A stretch of DNA of 64,000 bases from a virus. Position 1 is the first letter of the stretch. Each line of letters starts with the position of its first letter. A model generated the notes under the pieces. It made no database searches. It had not been told where the DNA came from and worked only from the letters and a program-made list of their open reading frames with translations. The DNA is taken from positions 1 to 64,000 of IMG/VR virus record IMGVR_UViG_3300045988_089199, one strand, 5' to 3'. A program made the position numbers and the translations under genes. Below, in pieces: positions 1,391 through 36,508 of this stretch.

Positions 1391-2063
1391 ATAATCCACA
1401 CCCTTTCAATTCTGGGCAGTACCCTAATTTTTTACATTGTGGAACTAATAATTCTTCATATCTTGGCTCAACTGCAATTACTTCTTTTATCATTTGTTGT
1501 GTTAAATAGTGTATCGGTAATTCAGCTCTATTACATAATCTTACATTTGCTAAATGTATAAGACCTTCTATGTTTACTGCAAAGCTACAAGCACTCGCTA
1601 CTCCAATTGGTACAAAAGTTCTTGCTATCTCGTTTGCACGCTCTTTACTAATACCCTTTTGTCTCATCCTTTCGACTGTCAACTGATAACTAGTTGCAGC
1701 ATATTCTTCACTCATATAATGGTCCCTAACTAGTAATGGGTCCTTTATTATGTCGGGTGCAGCATATACATCCATTTTACCTTTTGTAACGTATCTTAAA
1801 CTTTGTACATTTTTTACTACGCCTACTTCATGTCTTACTAGTTGATCTATTGTGAAACGTGGTATTCTTTGTAAGTCAAATACAAAATATAAATGTCTAC
1901 TGCCACTTAAATGCCCACTCTTTAAACAGTGTAATCCTACTTTTTCCGCTTGTTCTTTTGGTGTATCATAACATACACAAGCAAATTCACCATGTTTCTT
2001 TATAAATTGTGCTACCTCTTCTTTGTTAACTAAAGTTACTTTAAACTCTTTTTCACCAAACAT
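1371..2063 (-). CDS. thyX: flavin-dependent thymidylate synthase-like protein (ThyX family, divergent motif)
   Basis: GHLSGSRH...RIPRFTIDQLVRHEVGVVKNVQSLRYV aligns to the ThyX HxSxxEH / RHRxxSxxxxSxRY signature, but with E->R and R->E changes and one extra residue. Confidence 0.65.
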   Translation of the reverse strand: MFGEKEFKVTLVNKEEVAQFIKKHGEFACVCYDTPKEQAEKVGLHCLKSGHLSGSRHLYFVFDLQRIPRFTIDQLVRHEVGVVKNVQSLRYVTKGKMDVYAAPDIIKDPLLVRDHYMSEEYAATSYQLTVERMRQKGISKERANEIARTFVPIGVASACSFAVNIEGLIHLANVRLCNRAELPIHYLTQQMIKEVIAVEPRYEELLVPQCKKLGYCPELKGCGLYEPKKK

Positions 2064-2320
2064 TATCTAGTTACCTCCTCATATTCTTCTTTTGTTATAT
2101 TTACAACCTCACCACATCTAACGCATCTAACAAAGTAGTGAGTTGGCATAATTAACATAAATACCGCTAATATAAAACATATTGGAGCAGCTATCCAACC
2201 AAGTATTGGAATCCACATCATACATCCACCTGTTAGTAAAAATATTAAACTATAACTACCTCTACCCATTTTACAATATTCCACATCACCATTACATTTT
2301 TTACATTTACGTCTTGTCAT
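2063..2320 (-). CDS. membrane-embedded zinc-ribbon protein (LITAF-like layout)
   Basis: An N-terminal CKKC knuckle and a C-terminal CVRCG knuckle are separated by a roughly 40-aa hydrophobic stretch. Confidence 0.45.
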   Translation of the reverse strand: MTRRKCKKCNGDVEYCKMGRGSYSLIFLLTGGCMMWIPILGWIAAPICFILAVFMLIMPTHYFVRCVRCGEVVNITKEEYEEVTR

Positions 2321-2569
2321 TTATTTCCCCTCCTTCAAACTCTTTTTAATATCTTTTTCCAGCTTGTTTAATGTATCTAATACTGTTCTTAGATCTTTTA
2401 ATTCTGTCTCTAATATACCTAATCTTAAACAGTCAACTAATGCCTTCTCTAATGTCGGATAATATCTTTCTTTTGTTGTGTATGTGCCAACCTTAGTCTT
2501 ATAAGTTTGAATTAATACATAATTTTTATCCTTGTCAGTAGTAATTTCAAATTCTTTATTTATTTTCAT
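2321..2569 (-). CDS. hypothetical protein
   Basis: ORF with the ATG at 2569 placed 9 nt after AAGGAG. Preceded by the class B motif at 2586..2619. Confidence 0.5.
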   Translation of the reverse strand: MKINKEFEITTDKDKNYVLIQTYKTKVGTYTTKERYYPTLEKALVDCLRLGILETELKDLRTVLDTLNKLEKDIKKSLKEGK

Positions 2570-2585
2570 TACTATCATCTCCTTG

Positions 2586-2619
2586 TATATAGTATAGAAA
2601 AAATTACCATTTTGCTAAC
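2586..2619 (-). promoter_or_regulatory. class B phage promoter motif, copy 1
   Basis: Minus strand reads GTTAGCAAAATGGTAATTTTTTCTATACTATATAC. There are 22 nt from the G of GTTAG to CTATAC. The stop codon of the upstream gene (2615..2617) lies inside the GTTAGC box. Confidence 0.6.
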
Positions 2620-3514
2620 AATAACTTAAAATTTCTATTATTAAACTATAACAAGCTACTACACCTTCATATTTGCCTGTCTTTACTCCCTGATCATACT
2701 TTTGTACTAATCGTAGTGCAGTAAGTAATTTAGCAGGCTCTATACGGTTATAACGTAGTATATTATTACATATCCAACTATTAATACCAGTTATTTTAGC
2801 AATATCTTCTTCCCCTCTATATCCTTCTACTAATACACATTTATGGAGTTGAGAATATATGGCATATATAATACCCATTGCATTATTTTTATCCTCCAAT
2901 AACTGGTCTAATAATCTAAATGTCAATTGTTCATCTTTTTTCATTATGGCATCTGCTAGTTGAAATACAGTCACTTCTTCTTTTGTTGGTATATACTCAT
3001 CTACTATCTTTTTATTCAGTTCTTTTATTCCTGATCTCTTGAATATATCAAGATAATTATTTATTGTATTCAAATCATTATTACACGCCTCTATAAAATA
3101 TTGTTTATTACTTACACTACAGTCCATATTGACCACATTTAATAGTTGTTTTGTTGTCATATGATTGAATTCTACTACACAATTATTTAATTCCTTTATA
3201 AATTTTTTACATTTACTCGGCGTTGTAACTTGTACTACTAATACTGCATTTCTAATTTTATTACTTATACTGCCCCACGTTTTTTCACTCTTAATAAAAT
3301 CCATATCATCTCTAACTACATATACTGCAAATTTACCGCCTATTAGTTTACTTGTTATTTTGTTATATATGTCAGCCACTCTATCTATACGCACTACATT
3401 ACCCATTTGTTTTAAGTATATATTTTGCAGCTCAATTTCTTCTCCAGTAAAAATATAAAAGGGAAGTAAATTACCTTCCCTTATTTGCCCCTGTAAGTCT
3501 AATAAACCTAACAT
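2615..3514 (-). CDS. holA: DNA polymerase III delta subunit-like clamp-loader protein
   Basis: N-terminus LLPFYIFTGEEIELQNIYL resembles the HolA start. About 300 aa and adjacent to the delta-prime and gamma/tau genes. Start moved to the ATG at 3514 after the GGGAGGA RBS. Confidence 0.5.
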   Translation of the reverse strand: MLGLLDLQGQIREGNLLPFYIFTGEEIELQNIYLKQMGNVVRIDRVADIYNKITSKLIGGKFAVYVVRDDMDFIKSEKTWGSISNKIRNAVLVVQVTTPSKCKKFIKELNNCVVEFNHMTTKQLLNVVNMDCSVSNKQYFIEACNNDLNTINNYLDIFKRSGIKELNKKIVDEYIPTKEEVTVFQLADAIMKKDEQLTFRLLDQLLEDKNNAMGIIYAIYSQLHKCVLVEGYRGEEDIAKITGINSWICNNILRYNRIEPAKLLTALRLVQKYDQGVKTGKYEGVVACYSLIIEILSYC

Positions 3515-3666
3515 AATTTTATTCCTCCCACTATTTGGATTAAATACCATATAGATAATGCTATTACTATAGCACTTATACCATCAATATCCCTATCGCC
3601 TATTGTTTGTGTTATCCAATCAATTACTATACTCATTGCAACTATTAAAACCATAAAATTAAACAT
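3508..3666 (-). CDS. small two-TM membrane protein (52 aa)
   Basis: Found by reading. ATG at 3666; two hydrophobic segments (FMVLIVAMSIVI and ISAIVIALSIWYLIQIV). Stop overlaps the holA-like start. Confidence 0.35.
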   Translation of the reverse strand: MFNFMVLIVAMSIVIDWITQTIGDRDIDGISAIVIALSIWYLIQIVGGIKLC

Positions 3667-3667
3667 A

Positions 3668-3991
3668 TTATTTTCCTCCCTTTTGTTTTTTACGTTTTAT
3701 CCCATGTTTCTTAATGTCCTGTTTTTCCTTTATGTTGTGTTGTTCCTTCATATATAGTATATTATTTAATGTAATTTTACTAAATTCATCTATAAATAAT
3801 TTTTTATTTTTCTTGCTTATCTTGATCCCATTCTCATCTTCATTGATAGCACATACAGTTTCAAAGTGTCTTGCAGCAAACCCACGAACATATTTTTCTT
3901 CACTATACCAAGCAAAACAGTCCTTATAGGCCTCTGCAAATTGTTTAGCGAATTTCTTAATCTCTCTAGCATCATTTTTTAATGGTAACAT
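3668..3991 (-). CDS. hypothetical protein with basic C-terminus
   Basis: 107-aa ORF with AAGGGGG RBS. No motif recognised. Confidence 0.5.
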   Translation of the reverse strand: MLPLKNDAREIKKFAKQFAEAYKDCFAWYSEEKYVRGFAARHFETVCAINEDENGIKISKKNKKLFIDEFSKITLNNILYMKEQHNIKEKQDIKKHGIKRKKQKGGK

Positions 3992-3992
3992 A

Positions 3993-4796
3993 TTATTTCC
4001 CCCTTAAAGTTCTAATATTTAGTACAAATATATCGAATATTAATGGTTTATTTGCTCCTCTTATTCTTAAGTCTCTTAAGGCTAAACTAGTATACTCTAT
4101 CATTTTATAGTCTACATAACTACTATGTTTTTGCTCGTCTATTACCACTTGTTTAAACAGTTCTAAAAATAGTTCCACTGGGTAGCCATCATTCTCTTTA
4201 AATCCTATTGGATTACATATTTTAAAGGCATTACCTGTGCTAACTCTTAATATATTGTTGTATACCTTTAATGCATATTGATACATATTGATGAAATCCT
4301 TATCAACATATTCCAACATTTGGCCCGGTGTTGTGGCTACTTTACATAGTATATCTCTTGGCACTTCTCCTAAGTCGTATAAGTCAAATATATCGTTTAA
4401 CTCATGAGCACTGTAATTATCCATTATTAGTAGTTTCGCTCTACTACGTATTGTTGCTAATAGGTTATCTACATTCCTTACTGCAATCATTATGTAACCC
4501 TTACTAGGTGGTTCCTCCACTAACTTTAGTAGGGCATTTTGTGCAGGAATGGATAGGTTATCACCTTTAATGTAAAATAATGTTGGTGTAGATATAGCAG
4601 TACAATCTTCTATTAATTGTCTAATACCTTCGATATTATTATCTACTAATACATAATTGTAATGATTATTATCAGCTATTATTTTACTCATTAAATGCTT
4701 CCCAGAACCCCTATCACCCCACAATATAAAAAAGTGAGGTATAGGTTGACCATTCAGCTTGGCTTGTAACTTAGCCTGACCTATTATTTTAGACAT
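3993..4796 (-). CDS. holB: DNA polymerase III delta-prime-like clamp-loader subunit
   Basis: Degenerate P-loop GDRGSGKH, LLKLVEEPP box and SRxxx motif (TIRSRAKLL). Start overlaps the end of dnaX. Confidence 0.6.
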   Translation of the reverse strand: MSKIIGQAKLQAKLNGQPIPHFFILWGDRGSGKHLMSKIIADNNHYNYVLVDNNIEGIRQLIEDCTAISTPTLFYIKGDNLSIPAQNALLKLVEEPPSKGYIMIAVRNVDNLLATIRSRAKLLIMDNYSAHELNDIFDLYDLGEVPRDILCKVATTPGQMLEYVDKDFINMYQYALKVYNNILRVSTGNAFKICNPIGFKENDGYPVELFLELFKQVVIDEQKHSSYVDYKMIEYTSLALRDLRIRGANKPLIFDIFVLNIRTLRGK

Positions 4797-5797
4797 AAGA
4801 GTATCAACTCGCTTTCAACTAAATTTTTAGGATTCTGCTCATATTTTATCTTGTCTAATAAGTTATTGATCCCATCCAATATATCTACTAAGTCATACTT
4901 TGAAGTATTAGTTGCTATATGGATACATTGTCGCATTATATCAGTTGGTATCATTGTTAACTCTTTATTTCTTGTTATATTCAGCTTACATAAATCTAGT
5001 ACAAACTTATTTAAGTCCTTTACAAATAGTTTTAAGTCTTTTCCGTCTCTATATATCTTGTCGATTATTTGTATCGGTTCATCTGGTTGTTTATTTATAA
5101 TCCCTTGTACTATTCCTAATAGATGTTCATAATTAGTAATTCCTAAGCAATCTAATACTGCTTGTAGTGTTATCTCATTTGTATAACCTAGTACTGTATC
5201 TAGTTTCATTATGGCATCTCTCATTCCCCCGTCAGCTAATTTTGCTATATACTCTATTGCCTCTACGTTATATGTTAATATACCTTCCTTTTTTAAGATA
5301 TACTCTAATCTTTGTACTATATCGAATTGTGGTATACGTTTAAAGTCAAAACGTTGTAGTCTACTTAATATAGTCGCTGGTATTTTATGTGGATCAGTTG
5401 TACATAGTATAAATATTACTCCCTTTGGTGGTTCTTCTAACACTTTTAATAGGGCATTGAATGCACCGAGACTCAACATATGAACTTCATCTATTATGTA
5501 TACTTTGTATTTACTGTCTAAACTTTTCATTTTACAGTCATCAATTATACTACGTATATTATCAACACCATTATTACTAGCACCGTCTATTTCTATTGGT
5601 TTTCCTTTACCTTCATTTACGTCATTTGCAAATATCCTAGCACTAGTAGTTTTACCAGTTCCAGGGCTTCCGGCGAACAAATAAGCTTGTTTTATCTCTC
5701 CAGTTTCCAATTGGTTAGTTAATACCCTTTTTATATTATCTTGACACACCACGTCATTAAATGTTCTTGGTCTATATTTAGTTGCTAATGCTTCCAT
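4784..5797 (-). CDS. dnaX: DNA polymerase III gamma/tau-like clamp-loader ATPase
   Basis: KYRPRTFNDVVCQ, Walker A GSPGTGKTT, Walker B YIIDEVHML, LKVLEEPP and SRLQRF sensor motifs. Only 337 aa, so gamma-length. Confidence 0.85.
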   Translation of the reverse strand: MEALATKYRPRTFNDVVCQDNIKRVLTNQLETGEIKQAYLFAGSPGTGKTTSARIFANDVNEGKGKPIEIDGASNNGVDNIRSIIDDCKMKSLDSKYKVYIIDEVHMLSLGAFNALLKVLEEPPKGVIFILCTTDPHKIPATILSRLQRFDFKRIPQFDIVQRLEYILKKEGILTYNVEAIEYIAKLADGGMRDAIMKLDTVLGYTNEITLQAVLDCLGITNYEHLLGIVQGIINKQPDEPIQIIDKIYRDGKDLKLFVKDLNKFVLDLCKLNITRNKELTMIPTDIMRQCIHIATNTSKYDLVDILDGINNLLDKIKYEQNPKNLVESELILLCLK

Positions 5798-27519: not shown

Positions 27520-27902
27520 TATTTCACCCTCTTTACTCTTAAAGTTTTATATTGTTTCTCTCTATAAGCTGGAGCTATGTCGTCGGTACTTATTAGACCA
27601 CCATACATTAATTCCTCTAATTTATCTTCATCTACAGTATAAGTTTTAATTAGACAGTCCATTATTTCAGGTTTTTCTTGTGCCATATTTAATAATATTT
27701 GGATAAGTGTATCATCATCTAATTCACTTTTAGTATTAGTAGTATAAGAAACTTTTATGCCATCATATTCTCCTTTAGTAATACCTTGTTCATCTAACAT
27801 CATTTTAGTGCTCTTAATTAAGTCATTTTCAATCTCTTTATTCTTTTTATTGAGTTCTTTTATCTCAGCTAACTCACTTAATAAAACCCCTAAGTCCTTC
27901 AT
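27519..27902 (-). CDS. hypothetical coiled-coil protein
   Basis: 127-aa ORF with AAGGAGG RBS. Stop/start overlap (ATGA) with the next gene. Confidence 0.5.
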   Translation of the reverse strand: MKDLGVLLSELAEIKELNKKNKEIENDLIKSTKMMLDEQGITKGEYDGIKVSYTTNTKSELDDDTLIQILLNMAQEKPEIMDCLIKTYTVDEDKLEELMYGGLISTDDIAPAYREKQYKTLRVKRVK

Positions 27903-27978
27903 TTTTTAGCCTCCTTAAGTAATTAATCTATGAACCACATAAAACCTATTTTAGGTAGGTTCTATGAGGTTATATCCC

Positions 27979-28014
27979 TATATATAGTATATAATTTATT
28001 TATTATTTGCTAAG
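27979..28014 (-). promoter_or_regulatory. class B promoter motif, copy 12 (inside a gene 3' end)
   Basis: CTTAGCAAATAATAAATAAATTATATACTATATATAG. Overlaps the last codons and stop of ORF 27996..28274. Confidence 0.5.
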
Positions 28015-28276: not shown

Positions 28277-30946
28277 TTATCCCTCCATTATATCTTTAAA
28301 TAATTTTTTATTATCCACTACCTCACTTGATAGTGCTTGTTTACTTTTTACTATATTATGTATTCTCTCGTCTATGGTATCCTTGCACATAAGAGTAATA
28401 ATATTAACTGTACCCTTTGTTCCTATTCTGTGGCACCTGTCCTCAGCTTGTTGTTTATCTGCACTAGTAAAAGGCTCATCTAAAAATATTACTGTATTAG
28501 CTTCATTAAGAGTAAAACCAGTACCTAGACACCCTATTGTACCTAATATAACATGGCAATTAGGGTTTTCCTTGAACTCCTTGAGTAATTTATCCTTGTC
28601 CTTCACTTGGGAGGTTATACAAGCTGGATTGTACTTTTGTAGTAGTTTGGATGCCGGTTCGATGACCTTTGCCCAGTTACTAAAAATAATAACTTTACCT
28701 CCATTGTTAACTACTTCCTCAACTAATTCTTCCATACGTTTATATTTGACATTGTTTACTTTATGTGTAGTCAGAATATCTGGATTACCCGTAACTTGTC
28801 TCAAACGTGTTAGAGCAGTTAATGGATTCGGTAATAGAAGTATTTTATCAATATTATCTTGTATAGTTTGTTCTACTTCTTTATATAACTTAGTTTGTAT
28901 TTTATCCATTTCTAACAATTCATCAGTGTATATCTTAGGTGGTAAGTCTAATACATCCTCTTTTCTACGTCGTAGCATATATTTATCTAGTCTACCTTGT
29001 AATTCATCCAGATGTTTATAGCCAACAATCTGGTATCCTCCAAATCCACCCATAATACAGTAGTGATTCTTAAACTGAGTTAGACTGTGGTTCTCAACTT
29101 CTAACCATTTTAATACATTATATAAATCAATGGCCGCATTCATTATTGGTGTTCCTGTAAGCGCCAACTTATAATAAGAACAACAACAATGGATGGCCTT
29201 ACCTTGGATGCTGGTAGAGTTTTTGCACTTGTGGATCTCATCTATAATGGTCATACCTATTACACCGCACGTACAAAGTATTTTAATATATTCCTGTATT
29301 TTAGTGTCACGTAGTGTTTCAATATTAGTAACCAGAAAAAATTCCTCATGTTTATTTTGTAGGTCTAATAACCTATCATGTACACTACCAATTTTACCAT
29401 CCTTAAATCCTAATATATGTGCTTGTTCATTAGTATGTACTGATACTTCATTTACCCAGTTCCACTTCAATTCATTGACTCCACAAACTATAAGACAATG
29501 TTTCATTTGTCCTTTTTTACTTACTGCTATGTCCAAGGCTTGTTTAGTGTTATGCGTTAATATACAATTTTTTAATGCATATAAACTGTCGACTGCATCA
29601 ACTTCAATACAAGCTCCGGGATAATATCCAATATATTCAATACTATTTATTATCCTTCTTGGATTAAATCGCTTAGGATTTAATCTTACTAATCGACGTT
29701 GCAATTTAAATGGTTGGATATCTTTTGGTAAATGAATTTGAGTAATTACGTGACATTCTTTACAAGGAATGGAAATTCCATTCTTTTTATATGTACCATG
29801 TTTCATTTTACGCCCACAAGTTCCACCGAGTTGTGTAATTAATGCAATAACATCATCTGCTAGTGTTTTCGATGTTGTATAATATTCAATAGTTGTGCCA
29901 TTTTTACTAATATATCCGTCAGTATCTAATAAGCCCTGTAGCAATTCAATCCTATCCTGTATACCTGAATATTTATAGTCATTAGGTATAAATTTAGTAT
30001 CAGAATGGGTGTGTAATAAATTGTAATATTTTAACCATTTCACCAAGTCACCATTTTTATACCCATAAGTATTAGGGGTAGAAGGATATTTCGTAAATAC
30101 TCCATGATCTAATTGTTCATTTAAAATGTCAATCATGTCAGCATCATCTGTAGTTATACTTGGGGTTCTGTTTAAGTATCCATCCCCTAATAATACACCT
30201 AACACATAAGGGGGTATGTGTAGTTCTTTAGGTGGATAATATACTGGGTCTATCATAGGTATATAACATCTATTATGTTCAATAATATTCTGCAATGTCT
30301 TTGTATCAGCTACCCTATGATATTTACCATATCTATAACCATTTTTTAATCTGTCATCATTGTGAAGTTTATATCCCCATAAATGGTCTTGACAACACTC
30401 TACATACTCACCGGTATTAAATGTCACTTTAAACATCTTTAAGTTATTGTGAATATATTTATTTAAAATCTTTGTAGGTTTTCCATTACTGCCTACTACA
30501 TAATCTCCTACATTTAAGTCATTCATTTGTTTATATCCATTAGGTGTCAGTACCAATGTATTTAGTGGTACAGCTTTACCAAGACCTTGTTCATCTGCGA
30601 GTAGAAATTTTGTGTGGTCTTTAGAATATAAAAAACTATCCATCTGATAACTATATGGCATGGTTTTACTTTCATACTCTGGTAGTGGTTTATCGTAGTT
30701 GTCCAGTAACTTTAGATAATTCTCAAATTCTTTGGGTATTTTACCGACTATATCAATATTACAATCTCTGCATTTATCTAATATAGTTTGGAATGCACCT
30801 TTTGGGAGTTCCCACATATTTTTATTCTTATGGTAATAACAGTTGAATGATCTAATTACATCTAAATACTCTAACTCATCACCGACTATTTTAATGAATA
30901 GTGAACTACCTCTAAACTTTATTCCTTTGTCTATTTTTAATTTCAT
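28277..30946 (-). CDS. SNF2-family helicase precursor containing an intein
   Basis: Extein motifs: I LADEQGLGK|T, II IIDEIHKCKN, III LTGTPIMN, V/VI GTGFTLNEANTVIFLD..QAEDRCHRIGT. The extein is 547 aa after removing the 342-aa insert. Confidence 0.88.
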   Translation of the reverse strand: MKLKIDKGIKFRGSSLFIKIVGDELEYLDVIRSFNCYYHKNKNMWELPKGAFQTILDKCRDCNIDIVGKIPKEFENYLKLLDNYDKPLPEYESKTMPYSYQMDSFLYSKDHTKFLLADEQGLGKAVPLNTLVLTPNGYKQMNDLNVGDYVVGSNGKPTKILNKYIHNNLKMFKVTFNTGEYVECCQDHLWGYKLHNDDRLKNGYRYGKYHRVADTKTLQNIIEHNRCYIPMIDPVYYPPKELHIPPYVLGVLLGDGYLNRTPSITTDDADMIDILNEQLDHGVFTKYPSTPNTYGYKNGDLVKWLKYYNLLHTHSDTKFIPNDYKYSGIQDRIELLQGLLDTDGYISKNGTTIEYYTTSKTLADDVIALITQLGGTCGRKMKHGTYKKNGISIPCKECHVITQIHLPKDIQPFKLQRRLVRLNPKRFNPRRIINSIEYIGYYPGACIEVDAVDSLYALKNCILTHNTKQALDIAVSKKGQMKHCLIVCGVNELKWNWVNEVSVHTNEQAHILGFKDGKIGSVHDRLLDLQNKHEEFFLVTNIETLRDTKIQEYIKILCTCGVIGMTIIDEIHKCKNSTSIQGKAIHCCCSYYKLALTGTPIMNAAIDLYNVLKWLEVENHSLTQFKNHYCIMGGFGGYQIVGYKHLDELQGRLDKYMLRRRKEDVLDLPPKIYTDELLEMDKIQTKLYKEVEQTIQDNIDKILLLPNPLTALTRLRQVTGNPDILTTHKVNNVKYKRMEELVEEVVNNGGKVIIFSNWAKVIEPASKLLQKYNPACITSQVKDKDKLLKEFKENPNCHVILGTIGCLGTGFTLNEANTVIFLDEPFTSADKQQAEDRCHRIGTKGTVNIITLMCKDTIDERIHNIVKSKQALSSEVVDNKKLFKDIMEG
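29549..30574 (-). mobile_element. class 3 intein with LAGLIDADG homing endonuclease domain (342 aa)
   Basis: Starts AVPLNTLVLTPNGY (Ala1, block A) and has block B ECCQDHLW (His, then Trp two residues later). LAGLIDADG motifs are LLGDGYL and LLQGLLDTDGYIS. Block F is GACIEVD (Cys at the usual Asp position) and block G is CILTHN, followed by Thr+1. Splits GLGK|T of helicase motif I. Confidence 0.8.
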
Positions 30947-32082: not shown

Positions 32083-32832
32083 TTAATGATTTATCAAATA
32101 ATTTACTATATAATTACCTATTAATGGTACACCAACTGCGTTTGGATGTATATCATCATCAGAATATAAAGATATATTTTTTCTACATATACCACATTCT
32201 CCATACACATCTATTACAGGTATAGAATACATATTTCCTAATTCTTTTAATGCTTTTTGAGCTACAGGAGTAGTTTTTATATATCTAGTATTATCAGATT
32301 GAATCGGAGTTATTAAATATATTTGTATTGTATTTTTTTTAGCTCGAATATATTCTATACAACTAGCTACATTACAATAAAAATCTACATTATATTTAGA
32401 ATAATCAGAACCGCTTTCTACAGGAACGGTTGAAATACTTTCGTTAACTATGTTGTCACAATTATGACCAATCATAATAAAAACATAATCAACATTGGTT
32501 AAATCTGTAGGAGTAGTATAATTAGACGTTCCATCTCCTGTTAAAATACCTCGCATTCTTGATGAATCTCCACCACTAGATGCTTTATTTATTAATGTCA
32601 TTCCTAATTTATCGCATACATATTTAGGATATGTTGGATTTCCTGATACAGAAATGCTATCACCTAACCATAATGCTGTTTTTCCTAAATATTTATTATC
32701 AGTGCTTCCTAACTGTAAAGAATTTAAAAAATCTTTTACAGTTGTAGCAGTACCGTCACCCATATAAACACATTCAGCTAATGTTACCAAAGCTGTATCT
32801 TTTAAAACTTTTTTATTTAATTCTGTGTTCAT
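32083..32832 (-). CDS. SGNH/GDSL-family esterase
   Basis: Block I LWLGDSIS, block III-like GHN, and block V DDIHPN. Confidence 0.7.
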   Translation of the reverse strand: MNTELNKKVLKDTALVTLAECVYMGDGTATTVKDFLNSLQLGSTDNKYLGKTALWLGDSISVSGNPTYPKYVCDKLGMTLINKASSGGDSSRMRGILTGDGTSNYTTPTDLTNVDYVFIMIGHNCDNIVNESISTVPVESGSDYSKYNVDFYCNVASCIEYIRAKKNTIQIYLITPIQSDNTRYIKTTPVAQKALKELGNMYSIPVIDVYGECGICRKNISLYSDDDIHPNAVGVPLIGNYIVNYLINH

Positions 32833-34423: not shown

Positions 34424-36508
34424 CTAAAATACTATTGGCTCAAATCTTTTTAAGCCATTAATAACTTCATTTGCGATTAATTTTCCACCTTCTACATTAG
34501 GATGTATTAAATCAGCTATATAAGTAGTATGGTTTAGCGTGTTTATTCCACTATTCGCATTAATATCTATACATGGTATTCCATAGTAAGCACTTACTTC
34601 TTTCACTGCATTAGCAAAATCAGTCATACATAAATCTCTTATATAAAATTGTTTATCTTGATTTGTTGATTCTTCTTCTGTACGTCCTCCAACTGGTGTC
34701 ATAGTTACAATTCTTGCATTAGGACATCTTATTTGAATTTTCTTAATCATTAACGCAAAAGCGGATTTAAACGATACACTTTCACTTAGACTGTCTGTTT
34801 TTAAATCTCCCATATTTATAACAGCATTGCTCCAGTCATTATGACCACCAAATATTAATATTACATCACTATCTGTAGGTATAGTTTCAATTCTTGTGTC
34901 ACTACTCATATGGTTAGTAGACGAGTTAAATTGAGTTACAGTTGTTCCTCCTACTCCTCTATTATAAAATGAGCAATTAAAATATGAACTAACATAAGAT
35001 TGCCATTTATTTTGCTCTGTTACACTATCGCCATACGCACATATCTTTTTGCCTTTATACCAACTTTCTGTTTTACTCATATCTTCTATTTTATCTTTTG
35101 GGATATATAATTTATCGTTTTCATATGGTTTACCTTGGTCTGTTATCCAATATGTTGCTAATGTTGCATCATCAGTTGTGACGAAGGTATATCTTATATA
35201 TTTTATTTTGGTATCTGATTGTGGTAATGCTACTATACCTGCTGGAGTCTCTGAACTTTGAGGTGTTATTGATTTTAAGAAATTTTTACTCGCATCATAA
35301 TAATATATATACCCATTTGTATTACAATATGTTGATTCACACCCATCTCTTAATTCTATATAATCAGTAGATGTTCGTGCTTTTCCTGGAACAGAATCAG
35401 GTAATCCATAAGAGGGATTTATTGCATATTCTTTTTGAAGGGTTACATTTTTTAATAAATTGTCTACTTTTGTGAAAAATGTACATTGTTCAGGAGTTAT
35501 ATTCTTAATTTTCCCCTGTACATTTTCAATAGTTTTTGATTTAGGTTGTGTCTTAAAATTATCATAAGTATCATGAAAATCACCAATATAAAATGTTTTA
35601 ATAACTTTATCATAAGTAGCCCAACTTCCAATGACTACTTGGTCATATTTAGCATAGTTATCGGATGATACTAATGTTCCTGTTGCAGATAGTGTTAAAT
35701 TATCCACTTCGCCAGTACTACATTTAAGAGACCAAAAGAATCCATTATTAACATCTGGAGAAGTCTCATCTTCAAATTCTATGAAACCTTTTATTTTGTT
35801 CGATTTAAGTTTTGCGTCAAGTGTAAAAGTTTTAGACTCATTTCCATTATGTCCAATTAACGTATCGAAATTTTTTCCTACATATTTTGAATCATCAATA
35901 CAGTTATTTGAAATTGGCACATATTCTATATCTAATAATGTATTTAAATTACCACATTGAGTTCTTATGGCATCTCCTATATTTTTGTATATAGTGCCAT
36001 TAGCACCTGTTCTTCCATCTATTAATTCAGCATCACCAGTAGTACTTCCTTCAGTTAGTGTAGTTAAATTATCTATTCTAGTTTTTTGAACTTGTATATC
36101 AGTTTTAACACTAGTATCATCATAATTTTCTAAACTAGATAATTTAGTTCGTTCTTCAGTTGTGATAGTTTTGTTCGCAATATCTTTACATTGTGCATTA
36201 ATTTCATTAATGCCGCCTATTAATGTTTTATCCTGTGTATTTAATGTAGGATATTCATTGTCTTTTATGCCTTCCATAGATGTCTCATCTTCAACTAAAT
36301 TTACTGCATTAGTTTTTAGAGTTTGAATATCAGCTTTTATTTTAGTGTCATCATAAGGTGTTGAACTATTTTTGGCTTCTTCTATTTTCTTTTCTAGTTC
36401 TTGTTTAGCACTTTTGCCAGTACCATCATAATCCACATCGGCTAAATCAACTAGCTTAAAGTCGCCATTATTCTTTTGAGTTAATTTACCTATTATCTCA
36501 ATACCCAT
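34424..36508 (-). CDS. tail fibre protein with C-terminal SGNH esterase domain
   Basis: Coiled fibre N-terminus with repeated D(D/T)..IK.DI motifs. The C-terminal 200 aa carry AYGDSVTEQ, GGHND and DLIHPN. Confidence 0.65.
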   Translation of the reverse strand: MGIEIIGKLTQKNNGDFKLVDLADVDYDGTGKSAKQELEKKIEEAKNSSTPYDDTKIKADIQTLKTNAVNLVEDETSMEGIKDNEYPTLNTQDKTLIGGINEINAQCKDIANKTITTEERTKLSSLENYDDTSVKTDIQVQKTRIDNLTTLTEGSTTGDAELIDGRTGANGTIYKNIGDAIRTQCGNLNTLLDIEYVPISNNCIDDSKYVGKNFDTLIGHNGNESKTFTLDAKLKSNKIKGFIEFEDETSPDVNNGFFWSLKCSTGEVDNLTLSATGTLVSSDNYAKYDQVVIGSWATYDKVIKTFYIGDFHDTYDNFKTQPKSKTIENVQGKIKNITPEQCTFFTKVDNLLKNVTLQKEYAINPSYGLPDSVPGKARTSTDYIELRDGCESTYCNTNGYIYYYDASKNFLKSITPQSSETPAGIVALPQSDTKIKYIRYTFVTTDDATLATYWITDQGKPYENDKLYIPKDKIEDMSKTESWYKGKKICAYGDSVTEQNKWQSYVSSYFNCSFYNRGVGGTTVTQFNSSTNHMSSDTRIETIPTDSDVILIFGGHNDWSNAVINMGDLKTDSLSESVSFKSAFALMIKKIQIRCPNARIVTMTPVGGRTEEESTNQDKQFYIRDLCMTDFANAVKEVSAYYGIPCIDINANSGINTLNHTTYIADLIHPNVEGGKLIANEVINGLKRFEPIVF

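Follow-up and report, generated by a model that had tools for sequence, protein, structure and literature searches.

Within the 64,000-nucleotide (nt) stretch of DNA analyzed here (positions 1 to 64,000 of IMG/VR virus record IMGVR_UViG_3300045988_089199, hereafter the window), a gene for an SNF2-type helicase is interrupted in its Walker A motif, or P-loop, by an insert of 342 amino acids (aa) that is very likely a functional and mobile class 3 intein of an uncultured, SPP1-like gut siphovirus. An initial annotation made from the letters alone had proposed a class 3 intein at this site, and that assignment has held: the Trp-Cys-Thr (WCT) signature of the class is complete, and the insert is homologous to the proven class 3 inteins with structures 6bs8 and 6rix. 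The match of the insert to the features of an intein is far beyond chance. Its placement at 29549-30574, after DEQGLGK and before TKQAL, was exact. No strand had been given; the coordinates, in plus-strand numbering, stood, and extraction of the open reading frame (ORF) places the gene on the minus strand. The parts of the gene and of the intein are as follows, with intein positions named by conserved block and by place within the block (e.g., B:12).

28277-30946, minus strand: gene for the SNF2-family helicase precursor, 889 aa plus stop (from the ORF list and Pfam)
30575-30946, minus strand: N-extein, precursor aa 1-124, which ends in the first part of Walker A (DEQGLGK at 30575-30595)
29549-30574, minus strand: intein, 342 aa, precursor aa 125-466, in which a LAGLIDADG endonuclease domain interrupts the HINT splicing domain
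30533-30574, minus strand: intein block A, AVPLNTLVLTPNGY, with the Ala1 codon GCT at 30572-30574
30371-30412, minus strand: intein block B, GEYVECCQDHLWGY, with His64 (B:10) at 30383-30385 and Trp66 (B:12) at 30377-30379
30392-30397, minus strand: Cys60-Cys61 of the intein, at B:6/B:7
29678-30259, minus strand: LAGLIDADG homing-endonuclease domain, roughly intein residues 106-299 (Pfam LAGLIDADG_3)
30173-30211, minus strand: LAGLIDADG motif 1, PYVLGVLLGDGYL, which includes LLGDGYL and Asp131
29906-29944, minus strand: LAGLIDADG motif 2, LLQGLLDTDGYIS, with Asp219
29573-29620, minus strand: intein block F, PGACIEVDAVDSLYAL, with Cys322 (F:4), codon TGT, at 29609-29611
29546-29569, minus strand: block G, NCILTHN, plus Thr+1, with Thr340 (G:5), His341 (G:6) and Asn342 (G:7)
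29546-29548, minus strand: codon ACT of Thr467, the +1 residue, which is also the Walker A Thr
28280-29548, minus strand: C-extein, aa 467-889 (TKQALDIAV...), with the remainder of the helicase core (DEIH motif II, Helicase_C)

The intein starts with AVPLNTLVLTPNGY, finishes with CILTHN, and lies between GLGK and T of Walker A. When the insert was removed in silico the result was a protein of 547 aa whose Walker A, GLGKT, is normal, as had been predicted, and the same uninterrupted form is present in related phages. A search of IMG/VR with the spliced extein found 15 close relatives (89-96% protein identity) on phage contigs of 41-72 kb, 14 of which have an unbroken 547-codon gene reading DEQGLGKTKQALDIAVS (DEQGLGKTKQ uninterrupted). 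These intein-free alleles are among the loci we numbered L003-L017; the fifteenth relative, L015, has a frameshift allele. Alignment of the relatives' loci to the window by blastn showed flanks that are syntenic and ~90% identical, with a clean indel of 1026 bp between them at 29549-30574. The boundaries of the intein are thus independently confirmed by the 14 intein-free alleles and by the indel. In the precursor, Pfam models identified an SNF2-rel_dom that spans the insert (residues 108-723, E = 4.6e-26) and a Helicase_C domain (6e-15), and inside the insert LAGLIDADG_3 (7.7e-8). NCBIfam had no dedicated match to the insert, only weak matches to intein-containing proteins. The intein is not set apart as foreign by its G + C composition (30.9% versus 32.5%). 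The precursor is identical to NCBI protein DAZ48706.1, [quoted passage not shown], a record that has no intein annotation.

Class 3 inteins are defined by a non-nucleophilic residue 1, Trp at B:12, Cys at F:4, Thr at G:5 and, usually, Ser or Thr at the +1 position (PMC2807308, PMC5222942, PMC7891396). They have been described as monophyletic (PMC4031507), and most are located in helicase-type P-loops (PMC2807308, PMC5222942, PMC5050341). As far as class membership can be read from sequence, the window intein has all of these features. Ala at residue 1 (codon GCT) and the WCT triplet of Trp66, Cys322 and Thr340 are in place as initially annotated, as are the motifs ECCQDHLW, GACIEVD, LLGDGYL, LLQGLLDTDGYIS and THN (residues 340-342). 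Membership of class 1 fails on residue 1, which is Ala and not Cys, Ser or Thr. Class 2 comprises KlbA orthologues with Ala1, Cys+1, Asp at F:4, Ser at G:6 and no WCT triplet (PMC4031507), and this class fails as well, with Thr+1, Cys at F:4, His at G:6 and the triplet all present in the window intein.

The same residues are widely conserved among 79 homologues drawn from 5.8 billion proteins, for which the denominators vary by position. Ala1 occurs in 41 of 59 and also in all three known copies of the window-type intein, that is, those of the window and of loci L072 and L078. His at B:10 is found in 67/69 and Trp at B:12 in 65/69, Cys at F:4 in 58/65, Thr at G:5 in 59/67, and Asn at G:7 in 62/68. 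The +1 residue is Thr or Ser in 57 of 66, and the intein is almost always preceded by G-K. Cys322 aligned with Cys118 of Msm DnaBi1 and Cys107 of gp41-1_WCT, and is the predicted branch-point nucleophile. The residues of the endonuclease are nearly invariant (D131 in 73/77, D219 in 78/79, K194 in 77/78). The homologues reside in SNF2, PhoH, DnaB, terminase, and other P-loop NTPase proteins.

Structure prediction is in agreement with this anatomy. An AlphaFold2 model of the intein, with 42 homologues as input, had a predicted local distance difference test score (pLDDT) of 94.4 and a predicted template modeling score (pTM) of 0.92. Foldseek searches with the full-length model found the bifunctional inteins PI-SceI and TliVMA (E about 1e-16, query-based TM-score (TMq) 0.7-0.77), whereas the HINT part matched the class 3 DnaB inteins of M. 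smegmatis and M. chimaera and gp41-1, and the middle part matched I-DmoI. The presence of two LAGLIDADG motifs, centered on Asp131 and Asp219, is therefore borne out by Pfam and by the matches to I-DmoI and PI-SceI. In phmmer searches of the PDB the top matches were the gp41-1 WCT variant 6riz (5.9e-9) and then gp41-1 itself, 6qaz (2e-7), with the true class 3 inteins 6bs8 and 6rix at 5e-5 and 7e-5; a family profile reached 6rix at 1e-26, 6bs8 at 1e-25, and PI-SceI at 4e-20. These similarities point to common descent of the window intein with experimentally proven class 3 inteins.

The family to which the window intein belongs is large. A 2020 survey counted 1,701 class 3 inteins, 82.5% of them with LAGLIDADG motifs (PMC7891396). 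Our exhaustive HMMER scan of 1.84 billion cluster representatives yielded 17,899 relatives at E<=1e-3, of which 12,221 had E<=1e-10; identity was 97% to its own cluster, P0081, and at most ~44% beyond it. The nearest intein homologue had an E-value of 3e-67. By tblastn, 596 GenBank phage records contain homologues, none of them above 35% identity. No exact-word relative of the window intein allele was found in IMG/VR, and megablast of the gene against GenBank phages gave no match, indicating that this is a phage without a close cultured relative. The window intein is a new, divergent member of a large and well-described class 3 LAGLIDADG family in phage helicase/ATPase P-loops.

From these features we infer a course for splicing and homing. 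The precursor would be inactive on ATP, neither binding nor hydrolyzing it, with GLGK and T held 342 residues apart. Cys322, activated by His64 and Thr340 and packed by Trp66, would attack the Lys124-Ala125 peptide bond to form the block F branched thioester, after which the N-extein would move to the hydroxyl of Thr467 to give the block G branched ester. Cyclization of Asn342 would then free the intein, and an O-to-N shift would leave the 547-aa helicase with an intact GLGKT. Thr467 would thus serve as splice nucleophile and later as a ligand of Mg-ATP, and because the Walker A Thr doubles as the splice nucleophile, the helicase is expected to be inactive until spliced. The monomeric two-motif LAGLIDADG domain of the freed intein (Asp131, Asp219, Lys194) would cut GGTAAA/ACN in co-infecting relatives (here and below, a slash marks an insertion point), and repair of the cut P-loop DNA would copy the intein in.

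Rates of substitution bear on whether these activities have been retained. The precursor is present on at least eight near-complete contigs of ~68 kb from several data sets. The ratio of non-synonymous to synonymous substitution rates (dN/dS) between the window extein and intein-free alleles was 0.04-0.06, and the intein-free alleles had a median of 0.05 among themselves. Codon changes specific to the window extein comprised 13 synonymous and 4 non-synonymous changes. Judged by these values, the host helicase gene is not decaying. Among the three copies of the intein dN/dS was 0.05-0.08 overall, 0.04-0.05 for the HINT domain and 0.06-0.13 for the endonuclease domain, and none of the 18 residues that vary among them is catalytic. 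Both splicing and endonuclease functions appear to be maintained by selection, based on the low dN/dS of intein and extein and on the conserved catalytic residues.

Comparison of the three intein-containing alleles with their intein-free relatives indicated that the intein is mobile. In all three pairs the inteins were more alike in DNA sequence (93.0-96.5% identity) than the exteins (84.3-89.3%). In the extein tree the window is placed beside the intein-free L003 and L004, whereas L072 is in another clade, beside the intein-free L011, L016 and L017. L078 was left out of the extein tree and was placed by pairwise identity; its extein is closest to that of the intein-free L004 (96.0%). The exteins of L072 and intein-free L011 are 99.1% identical, with differences at only 14 of 1641 positions, and three of these 14 (372, 375 and 378) immediately flank the insertion point. 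At two of the three, L072 has the window-type bases (AAA/ACT, against AAG/ACC in the L011 type). The codon for Thr+1 is ACT in all three intein-containing alleles and in none of the 14 intact intein-free alleles. No long co-conversion tract or divergent patch was detected near the insertion in comparisons of the window with L003-L005, beyond the wobble base of Thr+1. Homing with a very short co-conversion tract would explain why the flanking bases are window-like and why the inteins are more alike than the exteins. Overall, these comparisons indicate that the window-type intein has recently moved horizontally between helicase lineages of related phages.

We also noted an ~100-nt patch in the L072 extein (690-796, ~29124-29230 of the window) with window-type bases at 8 of the 10 positions that differ from L011. 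This patch and the intein flanks are the sole clusters of L072-L011 differences, which suggests that the patch may be a second recombination tract from an intein-containing donor.

A different change at the same site was observed in a monophyletic, intein-free sister clade (L015, L068-L071 and L073-L077), which was represented in at least eight metagenome samples, including Hadza samples. Its members have in common one extra nucleotide within the codons of the P-loop, GGA CTC A GGC AAA AC (L015 ~2313; L068 3946-3960), at a site corresponding to 30575-30590 of the window and 7 nt upstream of the class 3 insertion point. The insertion breaks the helicase gene in two, with one ORF of 125 or 134 aa and another of 409 aa, and removal of the inserted A restores a perfect 547-codon ORF. 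The frameshift alleles have diverged considerably at synonymous sites (dS 0.47-0.73), with dN/dS of 0.07-0.10 upstream and 0.035-0.074 downstream of the insertion. The stretch from the insertion to the first downstream Met still encodes GKTKQALDIAVSKK despite synonymous changes, and the 18-nt frameshift site, CAGGGACTCAGGCAAAAC, is invariant in the clade. In this site CTC is the phage's rarest Leu codon (0.8 per 1000), and AGG, which would be in the 0-frame A site, is uncommon (3.1 per 1000). The sequence CUC AGG C also resembles the yeast +1 site CUU AGG C (PMC2790909). On its simplest reading, the insertion in the sister clade is probably a conserved programmed +1 frameshift in Walker A.

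The P-loop of this helicase family is also occupied by other inteins. In more distant SNF2 homologues, ~50-56% identical in the C-extein (L045, L046 and L047), we found class 1 inteins in L045 (ORF 2179-4842) and L047 (2056-4110) at GDEQG/C...HN/CGKS, three codons (9 nt) upstream of the class 3 site, of which the L047 intein has an HNH-type endonuclease domain. L045 and L046 also have a mini-intein at motif II (DEVHR/C...VHN/CKDSTS). With GK/T, G/CGK, and motif II all occupied among homologues, inteins have at least three insertion points in this helicase, which makes it a hot spot. The 1-nt insertion of the sister clade falls between the points at which the class 1 and class 3 inteins are inserted and so would destroy both homing sites. 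One could speculate that the P-loop is a contested homing site, and that recoding of an essential motif evolved or was retained as immunity to intein homing, but we consider this improbable.

Several observations weigh against our interpretation of the insert as a functional class 3 intein. The fit of Pfam Hint models to the insert is weak (Hint_2, E = 0.065). In place of the block F His, which frequently helps in Asn cyclization, the window intein has Ser330, at a position that is variable across homologues (His in 22 of ~64). At B:7 the window intein has Cys, where characterized inteins have Thr, Ser or Asp. In addition, the WCT triplet alone is insufficient, as gp41-1 engineered with WCT mainly undergoes C-cleavage (PMC7664689), and inteins with the signature could in principle take the class 2 route (PMC5222942). 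In such a route Thr+1 would attack the N-terminal peptide bond directly and Cys322 would merely assist. Ala1 is indeed common to the class 2 KlbA inteins, and class 3-signature inteins may use either route until Cys F:4 is mutated (PMC5222942). We nevertheless regard this route as highly improbable for the window intein: the known class 2 inteins are KlbA inteins with Cys+1, Asp F:4 and Ser G:6 (PMC4031507), as opposed to Thr+1, Cys F:4 and His G:6 here, all WCT inteins tested in the cited papers needed Cys F:4, and direct attack of a Thr hydroxyl on an amide is chemically unfavorable. That the WCT graft on gp41-1 cleaves instead of splicing (PMC7664689) would also be in keeping with a splicing-defective or mainly self-cleaving relic, with the interrupted helicase non-functional and dispensable to the phage, as would the tolerance of the sister clade for a frameshift in the same P-loop. 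Such decay is very unlikely, however, given that the exteins of intein-containing alleles are as strongly purified as those of intact alleles (dN/dS 0.04-0.06), that dN/dS of the intein itself is 0.05-0.08 and its three diverged copies have lost none of the catalytic residues, and that the phage is found on at least eight near-complete contigs. Both halves of the frameshifted alleles are, moreover, under purifying selection, which implies that the helicase is needed.

The pair of Cys residues before the block B His raises a further alternative. Cys-Cys is typical of the nearest sub-family (consensus CCxEHLW; CC in 24 homologues), Cys at B:7 occurs in 36-37 of 67-68 homologues, and the pair is kept in all three window-type copies, so that Cys60/Cys61 could conceivably be a redox or metal partner for the catalytic Cys322. 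The intein would then be a domesticated conditional switch, in which Cys-Cys at B:6/B:7 and Cys322 form a redox- or metal-sensitive trap that delays activation of the helicase. There is a precedent in Msm DnaBi1, a class 3 P-loop intein whose catalytic Cys enters a disulfide that reversibly inhibits the intein (PMC6195587), and the proposed switch would resemble the disulfide and zinc controls of that intein. On the other hand, characterized class 3 inteins have Ser or Asp at B:7 and not Cys, the hosts are probably gut anaerobes in which oxidative control is less obvious, and an intact, selected endonuclease together with recent horizontal spread suits a selfish element better than a regulator. 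A regulatory role is therefore unlikely, and a functional, mobile class 3 intein is much the preferred reading.

The closest characterized counterparts of the window intein are the mycobacterial inteins Msm DnaBi1 (6bs8) and Mch DnaBi1 (6rix/6riy), which have Ala1, the WCT triplet, the terminal His-Asn and an ATPase P-loop site in common with it, as well as a +1 residue, Ser or Thr, that also supplies the hydroxyl of Walker A. They differ in being mini-inteins without an endonuclease, in DnaB rather than an SNF2 protein, and in the residues at B:7 and at the block F His position, which are Asp and His, as against Cys and Ser330 in the window intein; identity over the HINT core is just ~26-27%. 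The PI-SceI/VMA-type inteins have the same two-domain plan of HINT plus two-motif LAGLIDADG (TMq up to 0.77), but they are class 1 (Cys1/Cys+1), larger, have an extra DNA-recognition region, and are 14-17% identical to the window intein. Similarly, gp41-1 (class 1, cyanophage-like, 6qaz) has the HINT N-lobe, Cys at B:6, and THN C-terminus of the window intein, but it is a naturally split intein whose residue 1 is Cys, with Phe at B:12 and Asp at F:4. The Deinococcus radiodurans Snf2 intein has a non-nucleophilic residue 1, the WCT triplet and Thr+1 in a helicase-type ATPase, like the window intein. The location of that intein in an Snf2 protein is reportedly given in the title of Brace et al. 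2010.

The class 3 prototype, the intein of mycobacteriophage Bethlehem, was compared by description (PMC2807308). It is of nearly the same size (341 aa versus 342 aa), is also in a phage ATPase gene, and has a non-nucleophilic residue 1, WCT, Thr+1 and LAGLIDADG motifs. Unlike the window intein, it has Pro1 and Ser at B:7 and is at terminase site c rather than in the P-loop. This Bethlehem intein, which the initial annotation cited as a DnaB intein, is really in TerL gp10 (PMC5050341). The 30-52 kb region of Bethlehem had no class 3 intein, only a class 1 intein in gp52. That protein (“phosphoesterase”, a metallophosphoesterase; L064 7578-9296) has a class 1-type intein at GNHD/CSWTN...HLTGN/S.

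Two phage proteins have the same architecture as the window precursor, with unannotated class 3 inteins that are full-length homologues of the window intein (32-34% identity): gp233 of Pseudomonas phage PhiPA3, an SNF2 helicase (L066 1021-4035) with a GK/T site, GTGK/AQPL...THN/T, and ORF42 of Clostridium phage phi8074-B1 (L067 1240-2943), at GNGK/AQPL...CCKEHLW...THN/T. These inteins are of other lineages (<=35% identity), and the proteins that host them are either of a different kind or only distantly related SNF2 proteins. A further class 3 LAGLIDADG intein at GLGK/T was found in an SNF2 homologue of 53% identity, L061 (ORF 1576-4317; intein ~1954-3000). This intein (ALALNT...VVTHN/TKQV) is only 35% identical to that of the window, so that either the two descend from one old insertion or the site was invaded independently.

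The window as a whole represents an SPP1-like siphovirus in which all ORFs >=500 aa are on the minus strand, and it encodes a portal, tape measure, Dit, family A DNA polymerase, and an amidase/SH3 lysin. A six-frame scan of the window with a hidden Markov model built from the homologue alignment found no second intein of the class 3 family, and Pfam searches of its ten largest ORFs revealed no further insert of the Hint or endonuclease type. Just downstream of the helicase, L068-L071 have a free-standing gene for a 300-aa HNH endonuclease (L068 5545-6447). It lies between ORFs of 92 aa and 127 aa that are adjacent in the window at ~27902-27996. The HNH gene is absent from the window, L072, L073 and L078, and L076 has a different, 112-aa ORF there. 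By its distribution this gene appears to be an insertion polymorphism of a second mobile endonuclease. In the tail-fiber region, GDSL-lipase/acylhydrolase domains were identified on the minus strand in a 249-aa ORF (32083-32832) and at the C-terminus of a 694-aa ORF (34424-36508), and these two ORFs flank a fiber protein with a Big_2 domain. The GDSL-domain proteins may be receptor-modifying esterases.

Genes interrupted by inteins are routinely mis-annotated, and DAZ48706.1, labeled just as an ATPase, is a case in point. The records of DAZ48706.1, PhiPA3 gp233 and phi8074-B1 ORF42, all with an intein-interrupted P-loop, carry labels such as “Chromatin remodeling complex ATPase”, “putative SNF2 domain helicase” and “hypothetical protein”, none of which mentions an intein, and RefSeq versions of such proteins are often called “DarB-like antirestriction”. 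As an intein, the element adds little conceptually, since phage ATPase P-loops harbor many class 3 LAGLIDADG inteins. Its added interest is in the clean population-level evidence of recent homing, together with a frameshift allele at the same site. Three intein-containing lineages, many intact intein-free lineages, and one frameshift lineage coexist in human gut metagenomes and constitute a natural experiment, and this set of alleles permits direct tests of homing, of the length of co-conversion tracts and of target-site escape in uncultured phages.

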